In this document: positions 30,908 to 40,853 of the stretch, one piece after another
Position numbering within the stretch: position 1 is the stretch's first letter
Layout of the letters: every line of letters starts with the position of its first letter
Assembly: GCA_036561685.1 (NCBI GenBank)
Contig: DATBOX010000141.1
Span: 1 to 56,844 of the forward strand
DNA: 56,844 bases
Direction: 5' to 3'
DNA from: Candidatus Limnocylindrales bacterium
GTDB taxonomy: Bacteria; Chloroflexota; Limnocylindria; Limnocylindrales; CSP1-4
The notes under the pieces: generated by a model
Told to the model about the DNA's origin: nothing
Databases searched by the model: none
What the model saw: only the letters and a program-made list of their open reading frames with translations
Translations under genes and position numbers: made by a program

Positions 30908-33900
30908 GTGGAAGTCGCGCTGCTGGGGCCGCTGCGGATCCGGGACGGACCGGCCGATATCGCGCCCGGCGGGCGCCGCCAGCGCCGCCTGCTGGCACGC
31001 CTGGGTCTGGAGGCCGGGCGGGGCGTGTCGTTCGACGAGCTGGAGAACGCGGTATGGGGCGACGAGCCGCCACCGACCGCCCGTCACACCATCGCCGCCC
31101 ACGTGTCGCGGCTGCGTCACCTGGGGCTGTCGATCCCGGCCGCGGGCGACGGCTACCAGCTCGACACGGCCACCGACGTCCTGGCCCTGGAGCGTCTCGC
31201 GGCCGAAGGGCGGGAAGCGCTGCCCTCCGAGCCGCGCCGGGCGATGGGCCTGTTCCGCGACGCCCTCGCCGGGTGGCGCGGCCGGCCCTTCCCCGACCTG
31301 GACCACGTGCCCCTCGGCCAGATCGAGGTGGCCCGCCTGGAGGAGCTGGTGGAGGGCGTGCGCGAGGACCTCCTGGCGGCCGAACTCGACGACGACGCGC
31401 GCGACGGCGGCCTGGTCGCGGTCGCCCGCGGCCTGACCGCCGAACAACCCTATCGCGAACGTCGCTGGGAGCTGCTGATGCTGGCCCTGTACCGGGCGGG
31501 TCGCCAGGCCGAGGCCCTCGACGTCTATGGCGAATGCCGCCGCCGCCTGGTCGACGATCTGGGCATCGAACCCGGCCCCGGCCTCCGGCGCATGCAGCAG
31601 GCGGTCCTGGCGCAGGACCCTGTCCTTGACCCACCGGTCGCCCGTGGCGCCCCCGCGGACCGTCGTCCTCGCCTGCCCGGCACCTCCACCCGCCTCATCG
31701 GACGGTCCCGGGAGCAGGAGGCCCTGGCGGAGGCCTGGACACGGGCCCGGGTCGTGACCCTGGTCGGCCCTCCCGGCGCGGGCAAGACCCGCTTGGCTGT
31801 CGAGGCGGCCCGGAACGCGGCGACCACGGTGTGGTACGTCGCGCTCGACCAGATGTCCCCGGAACGATCCGTGGCCGCCGCGGTCCTTGACGTGGTGGCT
31901 CCCTCCTCGCTGGCGACCGATCCGCGTCAGGGCGTGATCGAGGAGCTCGCGGACGCCACCGGCCTGCTCGTGCTTGACGGCTGTGAGGCCCGGCCGACAG
32001 ACGCCGCTGCGGAGGTCGACGCGGTCGTGGCGGCGTGCCCGGGGGTCCGCGTGTTGACCACCAGCCGTGAGCGCCTGGGGGTCTTCGATGAGGCGCTCAT
32101 CCCGGTCGGGCCGCTGGCCGAGGCGGAGGCCCTGGACCTGCTGGTCGATCGGGCGAAGCTGGTGGATCCGCACTTCGAGTTGCGGCCCGACGAGCTGGCC
32201 ACGGCCGACAGGCTCTGCGGGCTGGTGGATCGCCTGCCCCTGGGCCTGGAGCTCGTGGCCCGCCACCTCCACCTGCTGCGCCTGGATGAGCTGACGCAGC
32301 GCGTGGAGGTGGACCTGAGCCGGTGGGCCGGAGGGCCAACGCGTGGAAGGACGGGCCTGTGGGCGGCCCTCGACGCGAGTGTCGCTCGCCTTGGCCCCCT
32401 GGAGCGGCGGGCGATGGTGGCCCTCGCCGTCATGGTCGCGGATGCCGATGCGGCCCTCATCGCCGAGATCATCGACCCGGCCGATCCACACCTTGACGTC
32501 TTCGATGCCATCGCCCGCCTCGTGGACGCCAGCCTGGTCCAGGTGCGCAGCGCCGACGGCCCCACCCGCTACGAGCTCCTGCGCACGATCGCGGTCCACA
32601 CGCTGGAGACCGCCGACGCCGCGCTCGTGGCGGCCGCGCGCGGGCACTACCGGGACGCCGTGCTCAGGCGCGCCGCTTCGCTGGTCAGGCGACTGGCCAC
32701 CGCGGATCGCCCGGCCACGTTGCAGCTCCTGGACCGTGAGATGCCGCATGTCCGCGCCGTCCTGGCGACATGTGCCGCGTCGCTCGAGTCCGAGGCCGCC
32801 GTCCATGCGCTCGAGGTCGCGGTCGCCATGACCGAGTACTGGCTGGGCCGTCATCCGGCGGAGGGTCTGGAGTGGCTGCGACGGCTCCAGGCGGCCGCGC
32901 CACCGCTCAGTGCCCTGCGCGCCCAGGCGGCGCTGAGCGGCGCGCATCTCGCCTACTGGCTCACCGATTTCGCGCTGGGGCGCGAGATGGGCGAGGAGGC
33001 CCGTGCCCGGTTCGCGGCGATCGGCGATCCCCTCGGGGAAGGCCGGGCGCTGCGGCGTCTCGGGGCGATGGCCGCCGCCACCGATGACGTCGACGGGGCG
33101 CGCGACTACCTGGAGGCCTCGCTGGCCCGTCTCGACGAGGCCGGCGTCGAGCGCGAGATCGGGACCACCCTGCTCCACCTTGGCTCGCTCCTGGCCGACC
33201 AGGGCCTATCGGACGCCGCACGGCCGCTGCTTGCGCGTGCCCTCGCGATCGCCGTCACATCGGGCGACCCGCTGGCACGTGGCCACGCCCTGGCCGCCCT
33301 GAATCTGACCGACTGGAAAGGCGGCCATCTCGAGATGGCGATGGCCGAGGGCGAGGAGGCCCTGACCATCTTCGCCGAGCTCGGCCACAGGCCGACCGAG
33401 GGGAGCGTCAGCTACCGCCTCGCCGCTGTGGCCCGCGGACTCGGTCGGCGCAAGGCAGCCCGGCGCTTCGCGCACCAGGCGATCGTGGCCGGCGATGCGA
33501 GCAGCACCCGCACGACGGTCGCCTTGGGGCACATCAACCTGGCTCGCCTCGACCTGGATGACGGCGACACGGCGGCAGCCGCCGGGCATCTGCACGAAGC
33601 GCTCCAGGCGCTCGATGCCGTCGAGGACCGGTGGGTCCTGGTCGACGCGCTCGAGACAGCGGCCCGCCTGGCTCTGGCGGCGGGCGCGGACGGGGCCGCG
33701 CCACTGCTGGGGGCGGCGGCGGCGATCCGGGCGGCGATCCACCAGCCCGTGGCCCCGACCGAGTCGGACGATCTCGACGCTGCGCACCGTGAGGTCGGCC
33801 AGATACACGCAAGCGGAGCGGCCACGGGCCCGATCGGCATCGCCGCGGCCCATGCTGATGCGCTCAGCATCGTGAGCGACCTGGCACGGCCGACCGCCGC

Positions 33901-33931
33901 CCCGACGCCGCTGCGGCGCGCCCGGGCCTAG
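30908..33931 (+). CDS. AfsR/SARP-family STAND regulator: OmpR-type wHTH + BTAD + NB-ARC P-loop NTPase + TPR
   Basis: N-terminus VALLGPLRI...RRQRRLLARL...GYQL. BTAD (WRGRPF...YRERRWELLMLALYRAGRQAEALDVY). Walker A GPPGAGKT (nt ~31766-31789), Walker B LLVLDGCE. C-terminal ~350 aa of TPR-like helices. GTG start. Confidence 0.86.
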   Translation: MEVALLGPLRIRDGPADIAPGGRRQRRLLARLGLEAGRGVSFDELENAVWGDEPPPTARHTIAAHVSRLRHLGLSIPAAGDGYQLDTATDVLALERLAAEGREALPSEPRRAMGLFRDALAGWRGRPFPDLDHVPLGQIEVARLEELVEGVREDLLAAELDDDARDGGLVAVARGLTAEQPYRERRWELLMLALYRAGRQAEALDVYGECRRRLVDDLGIEPGPGLRRMQQAVLAQDPVLDPPVARGAPADRRPRLPGTSTRLIGRSREQEALAEAWTRARVVTLVGPPGAGKTRLAVEAARNAATTVWYVALDQMSPERSVAAAVLDVVAPSSLATDPRQGVIEELADATGLLVLDGCEARPTDAAAEVDAVVAACPGVRVLTTSRERLGVFDEALIPVGPLAEAEALDLLVDRAKLVDPHFELRPDELATADRLCGLVDRLPLGLELVARHLHLLRLDELTQRVEVDLSRWAGGPTRGRTGLWAALDASVARLGPLERRAMVALAVMVADADAALIAEIIDPADPHLDVFDAIARLVDASLVQVRSADGPTRYELLRTIAVHTLETADAALVAAARGHYRDAVLRRAASLVRRLATADRPATLQLLDREMPHVRAVLATCAASLESEAAVHALEVAVAMTEYWLGRHPAEGLEWLRRLQAAAPPLSALRAQAALSGAHLAYWLTDFALGREMGEEARARFAAIGDPLGEGRALRRLGAMAAATDDVDGARDYLEASLARLDEAGVEREIGTTLLHLGSLLADQGLSDAARPLLARALAIAVTSGDPLARGHALAALNLTDWKGGHLEMAMAEGEEALTIFAELGHRPTEGSVSYRLAAVARGLGRRKAARRFAHQAIVAGDASSTRTTVALGHINLARLDLDDGDTAAAAGHLHEALQALDAVEDRWVLVDALETAARLALAAGADGAAPLLGAAAAIRAAIHQPVAPTESDDLDAAHREVGQIHASGAATGPIGIAAAHADALSIVSDLARPTAAPTPLRRARA

Positions 33932-33955
33932 CGAACCCGGGGTCGCGGTCGAGCC

Positions 33956-34009
33956 GCGATCGGCCCCACCGTTCTCTGCGATCGATCTGCGATCGGCTCC
34001 CCCGACGCT
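33956..34009 (+). promoter_or_regulatory. Candidate SARP-type operator/promoter: three phased GCGATCG repeats plus a GACGCT -10-like hexamer
   Basis: GCGATCGG 33956, GCGATCGA 33978, GCGATCGG 33989 (start-to-start 22 and 11 nt). GACGCT at 34004-34009 lies 8 nt after the last heptamer. The same layout recurs at 36660-36713. Confidence 0.5.
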
Positions 34010-34013
34010 GGTG

Positions 34014-34036
34014 ACCTGCGGCCGTGATCCGCAGGT
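34014..34036 (+). promoter_or_regulatory. Leader hairpin ACCTGCGG-CCGTGAT-CCGCAGGT in the predicted 5' UTR
   Basis: 8-bp stem with a 7-nt loop. The 21-nt core ACCTGCGGCCGTGATCCGCAG is identical at 40185-40205. Confidence 0.45.
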
Positions 34037-34059
34037 GACCTCAAGCGATCGGAGCCCAG

Positions 34060-35253
34060 ATGACGCGCAGACCCGCGCTGACCGGCCTCACCGCCATCGC
34101 CCTTGTCCTGGCCCTCACCGCCTGTTCCGCGGGTGGCGCGGCGGGACCATCATCCGCGGGCGCCGGGAATGGCTCAGCCGCTGGTGGCGGGGCTCCCGCG
34201 TCCGCCGCGAACGCGGGGGGCGGCGGCTCGGCCGGATGTGGCAATCCGGCCGGGGCCACGGTCGGGGCGGCCGGCGGCGCCTATGCCTCGATGCTCGCCG
34301 GCGTCATCTGCGGCATGCCGAACATCGATCCGTGCGCGTATCTGGACCCGGCCAGCGTGCAGGCGCTCTTCGCGGTCACCCTGGACACGCCCACGACCGA
34401 TCACCTGGGCAATTGCACCTGGCCGCTCACCGACCCCTCCGTGGGCGACGGCCTCGAGGTGATCGTCAACGTGGGCCAAGGTGAGGGTCCTCTCGACGCC
34501 GACATGGGTATCGGCGGCGACGCGACCGCCATCAGCGGCATCGGTGACAAGGCCAGCTGGCAGCTGCTGGCGGGCTACTTCCCGCACCTGGGGGCCGTCA
34601 AGGGCGACACCACGTGCGAGCTGACTGCGGGTGGTGGGAACGCGCAGCTGAAGGTTCCGACCAGCGGCACCGGGCCCCTGGCGGGCATCGACCCATCCGC
34701 TGTGCCCGGCTTCATGACCAAGTTCGGCCAGCTCTGCAACCAGATCTTCGCCGGCCTGGCAAAGGGTGGGCCACCGCCATCGCAGGTCGCGTCGCAGACC
34801 ACGCCGCAGCCCAAGGTGGACCCCTGCTCGGTCCTCGCATCAGCGGATGTCCAGGCGCTCTTCAAAGCCGCCCTCGGCGCGCCCCAGAGCCCTCTTACCG
34901 GCGAGTGCGACTGGGCCCTCAGCGACCCGTCGAAAGGTGACGGCGGCCTGACCCTGCACGTGGACCGCAGCCAGGCCGGCCTGGCGCAGGACATGGTCCT
35001 CGCGCCGAAGATGACGAGCCTCTCGGGCGTCGGCGACAGCGCCGAATGGGGCCTCGCCGTGGGCGTCGATCCGCTCCTGATCGCCACCAAGGGCGCCCAC
35101 GGCTGCGAGCTCGCGGTCACCGGCGATCTGACGCAGCTGAACGTGGCCACCGTGGCGGGCATCTACACCACCATCGACCCCTCCGCACTGCCCGGCTTCA
35201 TCCAGCAGCTCGGCGGCCTCTGCACCAAGGTCTTCGCCGGGCTGGGTTCCTGA
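34060..35253 (+). CDS. Secreted lipoprotein with two tandem DUF3558-like domains
   Basis: Signal peptide and lipobox LALTAC, then a Gly/Ala-rich linker. Two ~145-aa repeats each begin DPC and carry 4 aligned Cys. GGAG 6 nt upstream of the ATG. Confidence 0.75.
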   Translation: MTRRPALTGLTAIALVLALTACSAGGAAGPSSAGAGNGSAAGGGAPASAANAGGGGSAGCGNPAGATVGAAGGAYASMLAGVICGMPNIDPCAYLDPASVQALFAVTLDTPTTDHLGNCTWPLTDPSVGDGLEVIVNVGQGEGPLDADMGIGGDATAISGIGDKASWQLLAGYFPHLGAVKGDTTCELTAGGGNAQLKVPTSGTGPLAGIDPSAVPGFMTKFGQLCNQIFAGLAKGGPPPSQVASQTTPQPKVDPCSVLASADVQALFKAALGAPQSPLTGECDWALSDPSKGDGGLTLHVDRSQAGLAQDMVLAPKMTSLSGVGDSAEWGLAVGVDPLLIATKGAHGCELAVTGDLTQLNVATVAGIYTTIDPSALPGFIQQLGGLCTKVFAGLGS

Positions 35254-35277
35254 GTTCCCGGCCCGGCGCACGGCCGG

Positions 35278-35286
35278 TGCTATCAT
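35278..35286 (+). promoter_or_regulatory. Extended -10-like element TGCTATCAT
   Basis: The only AT-rich hexamer in the 110-nt gap upstream of CDS 35364. No convincing -35. Confidence 0.25.
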
Positions 35287-35363
35287 CCCGGCCACCCGAC
35301 GCGCGTGACCGCGTCGCTCCTCGGTGTGACCCGACTCCTCGATGTGCCCGGATCGAATCGGAC

Positions 35364-35747
35364 ATGGATAGCCCTCCCAGCGAGCCGGCCGGCCAGGCCG
35401 ACCAGCCTGCCGTCGACGCCCCGGCGCCTTCGGTCCCCGGATCGACCGGCCCCGGTGAACAAGTACCGCACGTGGCGACCGCAGCCCAGCTGCGACGCTT
35501 CATCAAGTCCCGCCCGTACGTGCCGCTCCACGAGCTGCGCCGGCGCTTCGAGCTGAACGGCCAGGCCGACGACGTGTGTCCCGTGCGCGTCCCTGAAGGC
35601 GTCGTCTACGTCGGGCTGCCCCAGCGCGAGTCCGATCTGCTGGCCGAGCTCGTGCGCTGCGGCGATGTCGGCCTCGAGTTGTGCCGGGATCCGCTCGTGC
35701 CGATCGTGATGGGCGTCTTCCCGATGCGGCCCGTCGTCCGGAGCTGA
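35364..35747 (+). CDS. Small cytoplasmic hypothetical protein (127 aa, Pro/Ala-rich N-terminus)
   Basis: Strong GC3 bias in this frame, and no signal peptide. The conserved-looking core is AAQLRRFIKSRPYVPLHELRRRFELNG...CPVRVPEGVVYVGLP. I do not recognise the family. Confidence 0.55.
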   Translation: MDSPPSEPAGQADQPAVDAPAPSVPGSTGPGEQVPHVATAAQLRRFIKSRPYVPLHELRRRFELNGQADDVCPVRVPEGVVYVGLPQRESDLLAELVRCGDVGLELCRDPLVPIVMGVFPMRPVVRS

Positions 35748-35914
35748 CGCGGCCAGAACCCAGACGGCATCGATCCAGCCGACGCACGGTGTCCCGTGGC
35801 ACCGGCCAGCACGCGGCCGGTTCGTGCCGTTGACCTGGGGGGTCAGCACATCCTGACCTGGCGGGTTCGTATCTGACCCGATCTGGGCTCCCGCGACCGC
35901 GAATCGTCCGAAGC

Positions 35915-36000
35915 TGACCCGGGAGGACACAGGATGGCGAGATCGGCCGCCGAACGGGGCGCGGAGCCCTGCCCCCGTCCGGTACTGACCTCCCGGGTCA
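35915..36000. repeat. Perfect 12-bp inverted repeat TGACCCGGGAGG / CCTCCCGGGTCA with a 62-nt spacer, within a cluster of TGACC motifs
   Basis: Arms at 35915-35926 and 35989-36000. TGACC also occurs at 35831, 35854 and 35874. GAGATCGGCCGC is repeated at 35939 and 36015. Confidence 0.6.
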
Positions 36001-36030
36001 ACGCAGCCGGGGCTGAGATCGGCCGCATAC

Positions 36031-36606
36031 TCAGTCGACCAGGTCGGCGACCTGGAGGGCGATGCCCTCCAGGGCCAGCAGGCCCCGTTTGATCTCCGGC
36101 CCGTCCGGATCGTCGCCGTAGCCGCCGATGGAACCGTCGCCCGCCACGACGCGGTGGCACGGCACCAGCAGCCAGAACGGGTTGCGGCCCATGGCGGCGC
36201 CCACGGCGCGGGCGGCGCCGGGAGCGCCGATGCGGCGGGCCAGGCGCCCGTAACTGGTCACCCTGCCCCGCCCGATGGTGCGCGCCCCTTCGAGGACGCG
36301 CCGGTCCCAGGCCGTGACACCCGACCAGTCAAGCGGCACGTCCTCGAGGGCCGCCGGCTCGCCGTCCAGCGTCGCCCGGACGGCCGAAACGGCCTGACCG
36401 AGGAGACGGCGAGCTTCGCCCGCGCTGGTGCGGTCGACCAGCCGCACATCCGCCCCGAGCCGGCGACGGAGGACCGGCCGGACCGCCGCCGCCGAGCTGC
36501 GAAGCTCGACCGCGAGCACGCCGCGGGCGGTCGCCACGATCACGACGGGCCCCCACGGGGAGGGCAGTGTCGCCGAGGCTGCGGCGAGTGGTCGGGGGTC
36601 GGCCAT
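36031..36606 (-). CDS. ogt: Methylated-DNA--protein-cysteine methyltransferase
   Basis: Active-site LVPCHRVV motif and the preceding HTH (TSYGRLARRIG). Confidence 0.88.
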   Translation of the reverse strand: MADPRPLAAASATLPSPWGPVVIVATARGVLAVELRSSAAAVRPVLRRRLGADVRLVDRTSAGEARRLLGQAVSAVRATLDGEPAALEDVPLDWSGVTAWDRRVLEGARTIGRGRVTSYGRLARRIGAPGAARAVGAAMGRNPFWLLVPCHRVVAGDGSIGGYGDDPDGPEIKRGLLALEGIALQVADLVD

Positions 36607-36659
36607 CCGGCCATCCTGCCAGAGCGTTGCGCGGCCTGTGCCGGATCCGTTGCCGATCG

Positions 36660-36713
36660 GCGATCGGGGGCGCGCTCCATTGCGATCGATCTGCGATCGG
36701 CCGTGGCGATGCT
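36660..36713 (+). promoter_or_regulatory. Second copy of the candidate SARP-type operator/promoter
   Basis: GCGATCGG 36660, GCGATCGA 36682, GCGATCGG 36693 (22 and 11 nt). GATGCT at 36708-36713 lies 8 nt after the last heptamer, ~50 nt before ATG 36763. Confidence 0.5.
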
Positions 36714-36762
36714 GGTGGGCGTTGGCGACCCGCCATCACGACGCAACGACCTGGAGAACCCG

Positions 36763-37407
36763 ATGCGCACGCGGCCCATCATTCGAACGCTGAGCAGCTT
36801 GCTTCTCCTGCCCCTGCTCATCGGTGCCTGCAGCGGTGCAGGTCCGGCCGCGACGACCACCCCTGGTGCACCCGGGACCAGCCCCGCCTCGGTCGGCGGC
36901 GGTGCGACGGGCCTGCCCGATGGCGGCGCGACGACCGGTCCGGCGGCCAGCGGGCCCGTGCGCGGCCACGTGGGCGACAAGCTCCAGTGGTCGATCGACG
37001 GCACCCCGTATGCGGCGACCCTGGTCAAGGTCTTCGACCCGGCGACGGCGACCGGCTCGTCGGATGCGCCGCAGGCGGGTACCCATTGGGTCGGCGCGGA
37101 GATGACCCTGTCCGACGCCCAGGGGAACCCGGCGGACGACTCGGGCGCCCTGGACGGGACCGGATCCGACGGCCAGCGTTACGGCGCGGCCGGGAGCCCG
37201 AACTCCGGCTACCACCTTGGCACGCACGGTGCGTCCGGCGAGGTCTTCCAAGGCTGCACGGCCGTGCCCGGCGGCGAAGGGGGCCAGCTCGGCACCATCT
37301 GCAGCGCCTTCCTTGTCCCCGACGGCGTGACCGTCATGAGCGTCGGATATGGCGTCGAGGGCGTGGATGTCGGCGGCCCCGATGACGCTATCTGGTCGAT
37401 CCCCTGA
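36763..37407 (+). CDS. Secreted lipoprotein, DUF4352/Mpt63-like, paralogue 1
   Basis: Lipobox LLIGAC. GHVGDKL, ATLVKVFDP and WVGAEMTL blocks, 2 conserved Cys, C-terminal AIWSIP. GGAG upstream of ATG 36763. Confidence 0.75.
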   Translation: MRTRPIIRTLSSLLLLPLLIGACSGAGPAATTTPGAPGTSPASVGGGATGLPDGGATTGPAASGPVRGHVGDKLQWSIDGTPYAATLVKVFDPATATGSSDAPQAGTHWVGAEMTLSDAQGNPADDSGALDGTGSDGQRYGAAGSPNSGYHLGTHGASGEVFQGCTAVPGGEGGQLGTICSAFLVPDGVTVMSVGYGVEGVDVGGPDDAIWSIP

Positions 37408-37445
37408 TGCCCCTGCCATCCACCCCACCAGCGATCGGAGTCGAG

Positions 37446-38057
37446 ATGTCGGTGAGAACCCTCTTTCCCCGCGGCCTTTGTGTCGTGGCCCTGGCGATCG
37501 CCCTGGCGGCCTGTGGCGCCACAGGCGCCTCGGGCACGGGCAGCACGTCGTCGGGCGCGGCCGGTCCTACGCTGGCGCCTGGCGGGACCGTGGTGGCGAC
37601 ACCTGCGGGCAGCGGCGCGGTGACCGGCCACGTGGGCGACAAGCTGACGTATCCCGGGAGCAACGTCGACCTGGGCTTCGATGCGACCCTCGTCAAGGTC
37701 TTTGATCCCGCCACCCCGACCTCCGCCTCCACCGAGGCGTTGCCGTCCGGCGCTCGGTGGGTCGGCATCGAGATCACCATCGACAACCACTCGCCGCAGG
37801 CCGGCAATGACTCCTCGGCCATCGACGGGATGGCCTCCGACGGGACCGCCTTGACCACCGACGATGTCTATCAGGGCTTCTCGCGACCCATCGGCGAGTT
37901 CCAGGGCTGCACCGAGAGCAGCTCGCTCGGCGACACGGACGTGCCATACACGCAATGCGAGGCCTTCGTCGTGCCGGATGGCCAGACCCTGACGAAGGTC
38001 GGCTTCCACATCAACCAGCTGGGGGAAACCGATCAGGCCACCTGGACGGTGCCCTGA
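37446..38057 (+). CDS. Secreted lipoprotein, DUF4352/Mpt63-like, paralogue 2
   Basis: Lipobox ALAAC. GHVGDKL, ATLVKVFDP and WVGIEITIDNHS blocks, C-terminal ATWTVP. GATCGGAG upstream of ATG 37446. Confidence 0.78.
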   Translation: MSVRTLFPRGLCVVALAIALAACGATGASGTGSTSSGAAGPTLAPGGTVVATPAGSGAVTGHVGDKLTYPGSNVDLGFDATLVKVFDPATPTSASTEALPSGARWVGIEITIDNHSPQAGNDSSAIDGMASDGTALTTDDVYQGFSRPIGEFQGCTESSSLGDTDVPYTQCEAFVVPDGQTLTKVGFHINQLGETDQATWTVP

Positions 38058-38059
38058 TC

Positions 38060-40168
38060 ATGCGTACCCGGTGGCTCGTCGCGCTGCTGCTGACGGCCCT
38101 GTTGGCCAGTGCCTGCGGCGCCGCCACGACCACCCCGGGAGCGGCGAGCCCGGCCCCGAGCGGGCCGGCCAGCGCCATCGCCGCCCACCAGGTCCCACTC
38201 GGAGCGACCGCGCCCGTCGACGATGCGACATGGGCCCTGGCCGAGCGATTGACGGAAGACACCTACACCGCCGACACCACCGGTGCCATGCAGACGGCCC
38301 TCGCCCGCGCCGGTATCGCGGTCGTCGCCGATGCGAGCACCGACCCCGGCACGGACGCGCCCGAGGTCTCCCTGACGGGGCCCAGGAGCCCGTTCGAGCT
38401 GCTCGACTTCCAGGCCCATGCCCTGGCCGTGGGAGCCTGGGGTGGGGCGGGGTGGACGGGCGCCGAGCTCGATTCGGTCGTGCCCCTCCCGGCCGGCCTC
38501 TCCGGCGAAGCGCCGACCTCCGTGCTGCTGGCGGCCTACGTGGCCGCCGTGGCCACGCCGGGGGCAGCTCTCGCCCGCGCGCTCATGGCCGGCCAGGACC
38601 TGCGCGATCCAGCGACCGCCCGCTTCCCGGCCGTTGTCTTCGTCCTGTTCGTCTCCGACCTCGTGACCGACGGCGGCCGACTGGCCGGCCCAAGCGCGAG
38701 TCCGAGCGGGGCGGCCGGGCGCACGGAGCTGCTCAGTCTCGCAGCCCCTGATGCTGCGCCCGTCAAGCTCGCGGTGGCGGTCGATACCGTCTGCTCCGAT
38801 ACGGCGAACTGGATGAAGGGCATGCTGGACGGCCTGTTCAACGCCCTCAAGCTGGCCACCCCGGACAACGTGCCGGGGGCGATCGTCGCGTCGATCTGGA
38901 ACTGGATCGTCGACGTGGCCCATACCCTCGTCAACAACCTCATCGCGAGTGTCACGGCCGCGGTCATGGGGACCATCCGGAGCATCGGAGCGGCCATCGC
39001 CGCGGTCGCCGAGCAGGTGGCCACGTTCCTGCCGTACGCCGTGAAGGTCATCGCCAGCGGCGGGAACTCAGGGGCGGCCGGATTCCAACTTGGCAGCGTC
39101 CCGCTGCGGGGCACCTTCACCGCCGTCGTGAGCGCCGGCGACCTGCCGAGCCTGCCGGCCGTCCTCACCGATTGCGCTAAGACCGTCGACGTCGACGTGC
39201 CCGACTTCCGGGCGAAGCAGGTGCCGGTCACGTGGGGCCCCATCGAGTCGCTCCCCGACCCGCTGCTGGCGCCGATCGACTCGGCCGCCACGAACACCGT
39301 GACCGATGACACGGGCACCACGACGTGGGGCTTTCTGACCAGCCGTGATCCCGGCGATCCGACCGGCGAGCCGGTCGGTCAGCTCGATACCATGCCCATC
39401 GCGGTCCACCGTCCGGAGATCGAACAGGCCCGGACCAAGCTGACCGATGCCCTGCTCGGTTGGATCCCGCCCCTGGTCAAGCCGTTCGTCCTGGCCCTGT
39501 TCGCGCCCTATCTCGACGGACTGGAGGGCCGCCTGAACGCCCTGCTCGACGCGCGGGGCACGGGCACGGTGGACCTCAAGTACCACGAGAAGGCGCCACC
39601 GACGCCCTCGCCATCGACGACCCCGAGCGGATCCGGGGCCTGCGCGGTGACGCAACCCGCGGCGACCGACCAGGGCAGCCTGACCATCAAGTCGACGACG
39701 ATCATCCCACCGGGCCAGATCGACCTCGGCGAGCACGGCGGCGAGAACGACGCCGGCAGCGCCCCGCTCAGCGTCGCCGTGGGCGCAGACGGGTCGCTTA
39801 GCGGCCAGTTCACCCTCACGTCGCAGAACCACTTCGAGGCCCAGGGCATCAGCCAGGGGACGGAAGACACGACCGTCGTGGAGAACGGCAGCGTCGGCGG
39901 CACGCTGTGCGCCCTCGCCCTCCGGTTCCTCAACGAGACGATCACCGCCTGCAAGGCGACCGGCGTCCAGGCCGAACTCGGTTGCGGGCCGGTGAACACC
40001 ACGATCGACCTGACTGGGCTCATGCCGGCCGAGCCCCTGGGCGCGCCCACCGTGTCGGGCAAGACGTTCACTTGGTCGATCTCGTACGAGAACGGCTTCG
40101 ATGCCGGCTTCGGCGGGCTCGGCGGCGAGGTCCAATCGACGCTGACGATGACCCTGACCGCGCCTTAG
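38060..40168 (+). CDS. Large orphan lipoprotein (702 aa) with a central hydrophobic/amphipathic helical segment
   Basis: Lipobox LLASAC. The ATG lies 2 nt after the upstream stop. Strong GC3 bias throughout. I recognise no family. Confidence 0.7.
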   Translation: MRTRWLVALLLTALLASACGAATTTPGAASPAPSGPASAIAAHQVPLGATAPVDDATWALAERLTEDTYTADTTGAMQTALARAGIAVVADASTDPGTDAPEVSLTGPRSPFELLDFQAHALAVGAWGGAGWTGAELDSVVPLPAGLSGEAPTSVLLAAYVAAVATPGAALARALMAGQDLRDPATARFPAVVFVLFVSDLVTDGGRLAGPSASPSGAAGRTELLSLAAPDAAPVKLAVAVDTVCSDTANWMKGMLDGLFNALKLATPDNVPGAIVASIWNWIVDVAHTLVNNLIASVTAAVMGTIRSIGAAIAAVAEQVATFLPYAVKVIASGGNSGAAGFQLGSVPLRGTFTAVVSAGDLPSLPAVLTDCAKTVDVDVPDFRAKQVPVTWGPIESLPDPLLAPIDSAATNTVTDDTGTTTWGFLTSRDPGDPTGEPVGQLDTMPIAVHRPEIEQARTKLTDALLGWIPPLVKPFVLALFAPYLDGLEGRLNALLDARGTGTVDLKYHEKAPPTPSPSTTPSGSGACAVTQPAATDQGSLTIKSTTIIPPGQIDLGEHGGENDAGSAPLSVAVGADGSLSGQFTLTSQNHFEAQGISQGTEDTTVVENGSVGGTLCALALRFLNETITACKATGVQAELGCGPVNTTIDLTGLMPAEPLGAPTVSGKTFTWSISYENGFDAGFGGLGGEVQSTLTMTLTAP

Positions 40169-40226: not shown

Positions 40227-40853
40227 ATGTCGATGCGAACCTTCGTGTCTCGATGCCTGTCCATCGCGGCCCTGAGCATGGTTCTCGCCGCCTGCGCCGG
40301 GGCAGGCTCGCCGGGTGCCGCCAGCCAACCGGCGGACGGGGGAAGCCAGACCCTGCAGCCAGGCGGGACCGCGGCCGCCGCCCCTGCCGGCAGTGGCGCC
40401 GAGCCGGTGACCGGCCATGTCGGCGACAAGCTCACCTTCTCCGAGTACGGCGGTGCCCAGGCCGACGGCACGCTCGTCAAGGTCCTCGACCCGGTCACCG
40501 ACACGGACCAGTACCCGGCCGTGCTCCCGACCGGGACACACTGGGTCGGGGTGGAGCTGATCCTCGACAACCACTCCCCCGACTACATGAACGAGGCGTC
40601 CCAGGTGGATGCGACCACCTCCGCTGGCGCCACGATCATGGAGGGCGACCCGGCGAACGGGAACAGCGGAATCTACGGCTACGCGGGATGCACCCCGACC
40701 GACGCCGGCAACGAGCAGGACGTCCAGCCCTTCACCCACTGCTACGGCTTCGTGGTGCCCGACGGCCAAACGCTCACCCAGGTGGGGGTGAAGGTCGGGG
40801 AGGTCGCGACGTTCGACCGGGTGACCGACGAGGCGATCTGGAAGGTGCCGTGA
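40227..40853 (+). CDS. Secreted lipoprotein, DUF4352/Mpt63-like, paralogue 3
   Basis: Lipobox VLAAC. GHVGDKL, TLVKVLDP and WVGVELILDNHS blocks, FVVPDGQTLT, C-terminal AIWKVP. Confidence 0.78.
   Translation: MSMRTFVSRCLSIAALSMVLAACAGAGSPGAASQPADGGSQTLQPGGTAAAAPAGSGAEPVTGHVGDKLTFSEYGGAQADGTLVKVLDPVTDTDQYPAVLPTGTHWVGVELILDNHSPDYMNEASQVDATTSAGATIMEGDPANGNSGIYGYAGCTPTDAGNEQDVQPFTHCYGFVVPDGQTLTQVGVKVGEVATFDRVTDEAIWKVP

Follow-up and report, generated by a model that had tools for sequence, protein, structure and literature searches.

Phased GCGATCG repeats as predicted operators of an AfsR-like SARP regulator ahead of two lipoprotein operons in a probable Chloroflexota lineage

The closest described counterpart of the system analysed here is AfsR of Streptomyces coelicolor, known from cryo-EM at the afs box of the afsS promoter (8HVR/8JKE/8K60; PMC10936776). 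In this promoter, two 11-bp direct repeats spanning positions -40 to -19 replace the -35 element ahead of a weak -10, and SARP promoters more generally place their 3' repeat 8 bp from the -10, with repeats 11 or 22 bp apart (PMC10936776). The cluster-situated SARPs, such as ActII-ORF4, DnrI and PimR, also use heptameric direct repeats with 4-nt spacers and are encoded beside their targets, which are biosynthetic genes. Their operators contain two to three heptamers, on which at least two monomers bind cooperatively (PMC10972967; PMC5930380). According to a 2024 review, SARPs are "exclusively found in actinobacteria" (PMC10972967).

Here, we analyse a stretch of DNA of 56,844 nucleotides (the window, with a G+C content of 72%) in which two sets of phased GCGATCG repeats, each ahead of lipoprotein genes, accompany the gene of an AfsR-like protein. 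The geometry of these repeats, its conservation and its co-occurrence with SARP genes in related genomes make it probable, in our view, that both sets serve as operators and that the SARP encoded at 30908-33931 controls the activator-dependent promoters to which they belong. The repeats and the promoter elements predicted from them are the following:

33945-33951, + strand: degenerate distal heptamer of site 1, GCGGTCG, in phase and 11 nt before the next one; kept in the related loci L011, L014 and L017
33956-33962, + strand: distal heptamer of site 1, GCGATCG, 22 nt before the proximal pair; roughly half of the related sites also have a distal repeat, 21-22 nt upstream
33978-33995, + strand: proximal tandem heptamer pair of site 1, where information content peaks across 24 related sites; 45.0 bits with a matrix built outside the window
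34004-34009, + strand: predicted -10 hexamer of site 1, GACGCT, 8 nt past the proximal heptamer; A2 in 22 and T6 in all of 24 related sites
34014-34018, + strand: predicted transcription start of site 1, at about 34017, deduced from leaderless relatives (L011 12366, L015 9962)
34017-34059, + strand: predicted leader of site 1, with GGAG at 34051-34054
36660-36666, + strand: distal heptamer of site 2, GCGATCG, a pattern match
36682-36699, + strand: proximal tandem pair of site 2, GCGATCG-ATCT-GCGATCG; 45.3 bits with the same matrix
36708-36713, + strand: predicted -10 hexamer of site 2, GATGCT, from the conservation of A2 and T6 at +8 in related sites
36718-36722, + strand: predicted transcription start of site 2, at about 36721, deduced as for site 1, with GGAG at 36753-36756

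At site 1, the GCGATCG heptamers begin at 33956, 33978 and 33989, that is, 22 and 11 nt apart, and are followed by an ATG at 34060; at site 2, they begin at 36660, 36682 and 36693 and are followed by an ATG at 36763. An earlier note on this DNA had pointed out the two phased triplets, and the coordinates confirm the spacing and the ATG distances that it gave for both. They also agree with its observations that a 20-mer, TGCGATCGATCTGCGATCGG, is identical in the two sites and that GAYGCTGGTG follows at equal offset; the 20-mer has these two occurrences only in the window, even when up to three mismatches are allowed (2 found, 0.01 expected). The triple-heptamer pattern is found twice in the window against 0.03 expected. 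Single GCGATCG heptamers are not enriched (50 found against 40.2 +/- 7.8 expected), and the note was right to warn that they occur by chance. With a weight matrix built from sites outside the window only, the two window sites reach 45.3 and 45.0 bits, against 4.1 for the next best position in the window and a maximum of 15.8 in shuffled sequences. DNA alignment of the two site regions found no similarity outside the motif, and comparison of the two proteins encoded downstream showed that they are not paralogues. Because these proteins are unrelated, the similarity is confined to the promoter; duplication of a whole gene together with its promoter is ruled out on the same ground, and the two sites therefore represent a shared promoter module and not a gene duplication. 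A scan of 33500-37200 for consensus sigma-70 -35/-10 promoters found none, as expected for an activator-dependent promoter, and the proximal heptamer pair covers the -35 position at both sites. Site 1 begins 14 nt past the stop of the regulator gene, which ends at 33931:

30908-33931, + strand: large SARP gene encoding 1007 aa, with OmpR-type winged helix, BTAD, NOD/AAA_16 ATPase and TPR domains (Pfam); proposed binder of the repeats

The SARP matches the Pfam families BTAD (1.1e-32) and Trans_reg_C (3.4e-06), together over residues 23-234, followed by AAA_16 at residues 262-350 and TPR_12 at 751-822. This succession of a SARP domain, a NOD/NB-ARC-type ATPase and TPR repeats is that of large SARPs, and the domain order is the same as in AfsR. 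The best solved relative is AfsR itself (8k60, E 1.8e-31), with EmbR also among the best PDB matches, and the alignment to AfsR comprises the SARP and NOD parts (residues 4-562) plus one TPR stretch. With 151.8 bits against a cut-off of 1430 for the NCBIfam AfsR equivalog NF053617, the protein has therefore an AfsR-like architecture but is not an AfsR orthologue. It keeps the arginine that corresponds to R92 of AfsR, which contacts bases, whereas the recognition helix as a whole differs (ARHTIAAHVSRLR against QALAAVRTYASRLR), with T88 becoming A in the window SARP. The helix, of the form RHT(I/L)A(A/T)(H/Y)xxRxR, is kept in nine of nine SARPs compared, and its difference from that of AfsR fits the difference in heptamer sequence, the window repeat being GCGATCG, with extra distal copies.

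The same association of repeats and regulator recurs in related contigs, which were fetched through orthologues of the 397-aa protein encoded after site 1. SARP orthologues, 54-93% identical, were found in at least eight distinct lineages, with the tandem heptamers kept and the flanks wholly diverged. Every retrieved locus with a SARP orthologue has the motif, either downstream of the SARP gene, divergent from it, or before a cassette that contains it; motif and SARP are found together in L011-L013/L145, L014, L015, L016/L017, L018, L034, L037, L077, L129 and L147. There are two sites each in L011-L013, L014 and L015 and one in L016/L017, and in L018 the site precedes a cassette whose last gene but one encodes the SARP. 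In L015, the SARP and its cassette occupy another genomic neighbourhood, and the unit therefore moves together. By tblastn, SARP orthologues (54-64% identity) or homologues of the target genes were located beside the motif in L034, L037, L077, L129, L121, L095 and L032. L147, chosen only because its SARP homologue is similar at the protein level, has the motif downstream of that gene. A SARP-anchored scan of metagenome contigs yielded two loci only, one of them a near-duplicate of L011.

We aligned 24 related sites with the proximal pair as anchor. The informative columns are those of T-GCGATCG-AnyT-GCGATCG-G and two positions of a hexamer at +8, A2 (22/24) and T6 (24/24), and the other flanking columns carry no information; the proximal spacing of 11 nt never varies, and the distal repeat is placed 11, 21 or 22 nt further upstream. 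Positions 2 and 6 are also the two that dominate in bacterial -10 elements. We also ran an exact-pattern scan for TGCGATCGNNYTGCGATCG over one genome per species, which gave at least 120 matches. Among the 19-mer-found matches listed, NANNNT stands at +8 in 12 of 15 clade sites, a set partly picked by eye, against 3 of 97 unrelated matches, and no other offset between 0 and 19 shows it in more than one clade site. Where sites are defined by protein association alone, it stands at +8 in 18 of 19 and at +7 in the remaining one. In L011 (12366) and L015 (9962), exactly 7 nt separate the hexamer from the called ATG, as in leaderless mRNAs. This arrangement would fix the transcription start 8 nt after the hexamer and place the window starts at about 34017 and 36721, no more than 1 nt away from the positions 34016 and 36720 predicted in the earlier note, with the proximal pair spanning about -39 to -22.

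The note had also taken GAYGCT for the -10, an assignment in keeping with A2 and T6 being the only positions conserved at exactly +8 and with the two leaderless relatives, and it had described the geometry as SARP-like, in agreement with the published 11/22-bp phasing and 8-bp gap; the window reproduces the AfsR layout within one base (PMC10936776). Its suggestion that the adjacent regulator reads the repeats is likewise sustained in silico, since that gene encodes a SARP and the layout is conserved beside SARP orthologues. The window thus combines, as far as computation goes, a regulator with winged helix and BTAD, direct repeats at 11 and 22 bp, an 8-bp gap and no -35 consensus. As in AfsR, a weak -10 stands without a usable -35. 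Compared with the cluster-situated SARPs, the heptamers are others (CGGCAAG for PimR), and the operator of PimR lies clear of the -35; in the window, the canonical 8 nt separate the repeats from the -10.

By analogy with AfsR, two SARP domains would bind side by side on the proximal heptamers (33978-33995 and 36682-36699), taking the place of the -35, and would recruit the RNA polymerase holoenzyme to the weak -10 (GACGCT or GATGCT) 8 nt downstream, so that transcription would begin at the two predicted starts. More protomers probably bind cooperatively at the distal heptamers, which are in phase (33945/33956 and 36660), the NOD-ATPase and TPR domains may gate the SARP activity upon a signal, and the output would be the expression of two cell-surface lipoprotein operons. 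Judged by this analogy, nothing in the mechanism departs from what is known of SARPs. Counting against the SARP-operator reading are the weakness of the -10 hexamers (GAYGCT), one full-score motif (L143) with another neighbour, and sites without a SARP in the 8-kb chunks around them, to which we return below. The genes following the two sites are:

34060-35253, + strand: target gene 1, a 397-aa lipoprotein with lipobox LALTAC, an S/A/G-rich linker and two repeats of a ~160-aa domain
35364-35747, + strand: 127-aa protein, possibly co-transcribed from site 1; called in identical contigs and also in L011/L014, absent from L015
36763-37407, + strand: operon 2 gene 1, a 214-aa lipoprotein
37407-38057, + strand: operon 2 gene 2, a 216-aa lipoprotein, paralogue of the 214-aa protein; its start overlaps the preceding stop (ATGA)
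38060-40168, + strand: operon 2 gene 3, a 702-aa lipoprotein, whose true start is M36 of a longer ORF
40227-40853, + strand: 208-aa lipoprotein, a paralogue of the 216-aa family and probably the last gene of operon 2, from DNA similarity to the p216-type genes of L014/L015

The predicted targets of sites 1 and 2 are lipoprotein genes and not an antibiotic cluster, which distinguishes them from those of AfsR (afsS and antibiotic pathways) as well as from the biosynthetic targets of cluster-situated SARPs. Pfam and NCBIfam searches placed the target proteins in no family, and the 208-aa protein has a weak lipoprotein signal-peptide match. The family of the 702-aa lipoprotein comprises about 126 clusters, all hypothetical. 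An AlphaFold2 model of this protein (pLDDT 73.6, pTM 0.36) has a helical N-terminal half and a beta-rich C-terminal domain, and a Foldseek search with it against the PDB gave no match at E<=0.001. L011 is devoid of the 214- and 216-aa genes, and its homologous site-2 promoter, which ends at the equivalent of 36718, therefore abuts the ATG of its 700-aa gene. The ogt gene (methylated-DNA-protein-cysteine methyltransferase; 36031-36606, minus strand), divergent from site 2 and present in L011 and L014, was considered as regulator or target and ruled out, being absent from L015, which retains the site; for the same reason it lies outside the conserved unit. Relative to L011 and L014, the window is without ~990 bp, with a junction at 34118 (compared with L011 9084-10074), where the 5' end of a 324-aa lipoprotein gene, encoding the signal peptide, is fused to the body of the next gene, of 403 aa, giving the 397-aa protein.

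The host is probably a member of the Chloroflexota, within the Limnocylindria, and contigs identical to the window come from soils (for example SRR16915474 and SRR11673296). Wherever homologues of the SARP or of the 702-aa protein are given an organism name, it is Candidatus Limnocylindrales, an order of this phylum, and among the matches listed the SARP-bearing genomes are titled Chloroflexia or Limnocylindrales, with one "Actinomycetota" MAG; the window contains neither rRNA nor tRNA genes. Given that the review cited above restricts SARPs to actinobacteria, the host range and the lipoprotein regulon are the unusual aspects of this system. The promoter architecture of Streptomyces AfsR is thus indicated, its geometry unchanged, before lipoprotein operons in a probable Chloroflexota lineage, and the locus provides a precise predicted operator-promoter pair for an AfsR-like regulator, made of GCGATCG, an 8-nt gap, GAYGCT and the proposed starts near 34017 and 36721.

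The most serious alternative, which we nevertheless regard as unlikely, is that the repeats are operators read by a regulator encoded elsewhere, either a response regulator of the OmpR/PhoB type or a SARP paralogue, the adjacent SARP being a mere neighbour. All OmpR-type winged-helix proteins share a periodicity of 11 bp in their direct repeats, which leaves room for such a reader, and a response regulator is encoded a few kb away in L015 and L018. By contrast, no response regulator gene was called in the orthologous loci L011 and L014, and no regulator other than the SARP is consistently found alongside, in at least eight lineages and in several genomic contexts. Several motifs speak for this alternative by their surroundings. 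In L143 (9236-9280), a full-score motif made of three consecutive heptamers with GACGCT at +8 stands before a homologous cassette encoding 225-aa and 709-aa proteins; no SARP was found within 10 kb of it, and its neighbour is a protein with Guanylate_cyc and AAA_16 domains (cyclase-STAND). Likewise, no SARP was found in the 8-kb chunks around the Chloroflexia sites L041, L095 and L121 or around any of the Dormibacteraeota sites (L026 4278, L051 16, L083 1231(-), L085 289, L087 6880, L103 825(-), L131 376(-)). At all these sites, the repeats would be read either by the regulator acting in trans or by another protein.

Promoters similar to the window sites occur in Dormibacteraeota MAGs as well. 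There, the tandem heptamers precede N8-nnTACT, behind which come the perfect palindrome GGGCTCGCCGAGCCC, a ribosome-binding site and then a lipoprotein gene; at least three such sites are present in a single Dormibacteraeota genome (OY970307.1).

A natural control bears on the same alternative. In the same lineage, LAL (large ATP-binding LuxR-type) STAND regulators, which differ from the SARP by a GerE/LuxR output domain, are likewise encoded directly upstream of homologous lipoprotein cassettes: in L019/L020, L141, L142 and L144, cassettes paralogous to that of the window (225-aa and ~700-aa lipoproteins) adjoin LuxR-type STAND regulators with AAA_16 and GerE domains. The GCGATCG motif is absent from L019, L141, L142 and L144, where the best score is 12.3 bits, within noise, against 39-45 for true sites, and phased GCGATCG repeats occur in none of these four loci. 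In their place, CCGGGAWWCNCCGGAT, a palindrome-like element (tCCGGGAWWCNCCGGATg), lies upstream of cassette genes in three of the four (L019 7547(+) and 9926(-); L141 8595 and 9297; L142 5095 and 6366(-)). It has no match in L144 and is absent too from the SARP-type loci, and we consider it a candidate LAL operator. The operator type therefore changes when the neighbour is a LuxR-type STAND protein, following the DNA-binding domain of the neighbouring regulator and not the target genes, as the SARP-operator reading would have it.

We hold it very unlikely that the repeats are non-regulatory, whether as the relic of a local duplication, as a mobile-element or recombination site of the integrase arm type, or as a GATC/CGATCG methylation cluster. 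The 20-mer is identical in its two copies, GATC lies inside each heptamer, and the cassettes vary among relatives through insertions and deletions, all of which would suit such an origin; against it, conservation is limited to the heptamers and to A2 and T6 of the hexamer, the neighbouring bases being randomised, the orientation and the distance to the downstream start codon are kept, the indel breakpoints fall in signal-peptide regions or at the predicted start site and not in the repeats, and no integrase or transposase genes were called in L011 and L014. The 19-mer itself has other settings. Among the matches listed for TGCGATCGNNYTGCGATCG, many are coding, some are cyanobacterial GCGATCGC repeats and some are adjacent to tRNA-Ser genes; the coding ones include L024, L025, L040, L057, L060, L068, L090, L102, L108 and L113, and many matches from unrelated phyla, again among those listed, encode the ABC-transporter ATPase motif ...LCDRIAIVDHG... 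Tandem heptamers are therefore not diagnostic by themselves. The occurrences next to tRNA-Ser also favour a recombination site: in Solirubrobacterales/Gaiellaceae MAGs, a tRNA-Ser gene or tRNA 3' fragment is followed, 130-190 nt past its 3' end, by TGCGATCGGTTTGCGATCG or a slightly altered form of it, in the manner of att regions (L023 242(-), L074 6222(-), L097 3413, L125 587, L105 3122, L107 5772, L079 3284(-), L080 482(-)). No -10-like hexamer is present at +8 of these TGCGATCGGTTTGCGATCG sites, which probably differ in kind from the SARP promoter and resemble an attachment region of integrative elements.

Least credible of all is that the conserved block acts as a transcribed RNA element (a leader, riboswitch or attenuator) reached from an upstream promoter or by read-through of the SARP gene, as the 14 nt between that gene and site 1, with no terminator in between, and the short inverted repeats directly downstream (TGCGG-N-CCGCA, 34017-34033) might suggest, given that Rfam has no match in 33000-38000 at E<=1 or in the whole window at gathering scores, that seven predicted leaders fold no better than shuffled sequences (z-scores -0.1 to +1.1), that the conserved unit is a direct repeat and not a pairing pattern, that two relatives have the ATG 7 nt past the hexamer, which leaves no leader, and that L077 has motif and SARP gene in divergent orientation, where read-through therefore cannot apply.

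A broader and much more speculative idea can be put forward, which we consider possible but doubtful: that an uncultured soil lineage, probably the Limnocylindria within the Chloroflexota, runs modules made of a STAND sensor and a surface-lipoprotein cassette, in which an NLR-like sensor is wired to its targets either by a SARP domain, GCGATCG repeats taking the place of the -35, or by a LuxR domain and CCGGGAWWCNCCGGAT, output domains and operators being swapped as units. Should these modules be real, promoters of the SARP type, with their sigma adaptation, would exist well outside Actinobacteria and secondary metabolism, in the control of the cell envelope. The natural swap between SARP and LuxR on paralogous cassettes offers a built-in comparative control for the wiring of STAND regulators to promoters. 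The practical value is modest; the activator and its promoter would form a compact pair for use in high-GC hosts, and the locus gives access to three lipoprotein families.

A further GCGATCG, at 34045-34051, overlaps the ribosome-binding site of target gene 1 (AGCGATCGGAG, 9 nt before the ATG). This lone heptamer is probably not bound; the leaders of L011 site 1, L014 site 2 and L017 keep it, and those of L014 site 1 and L095 have similar heptamers in its place.
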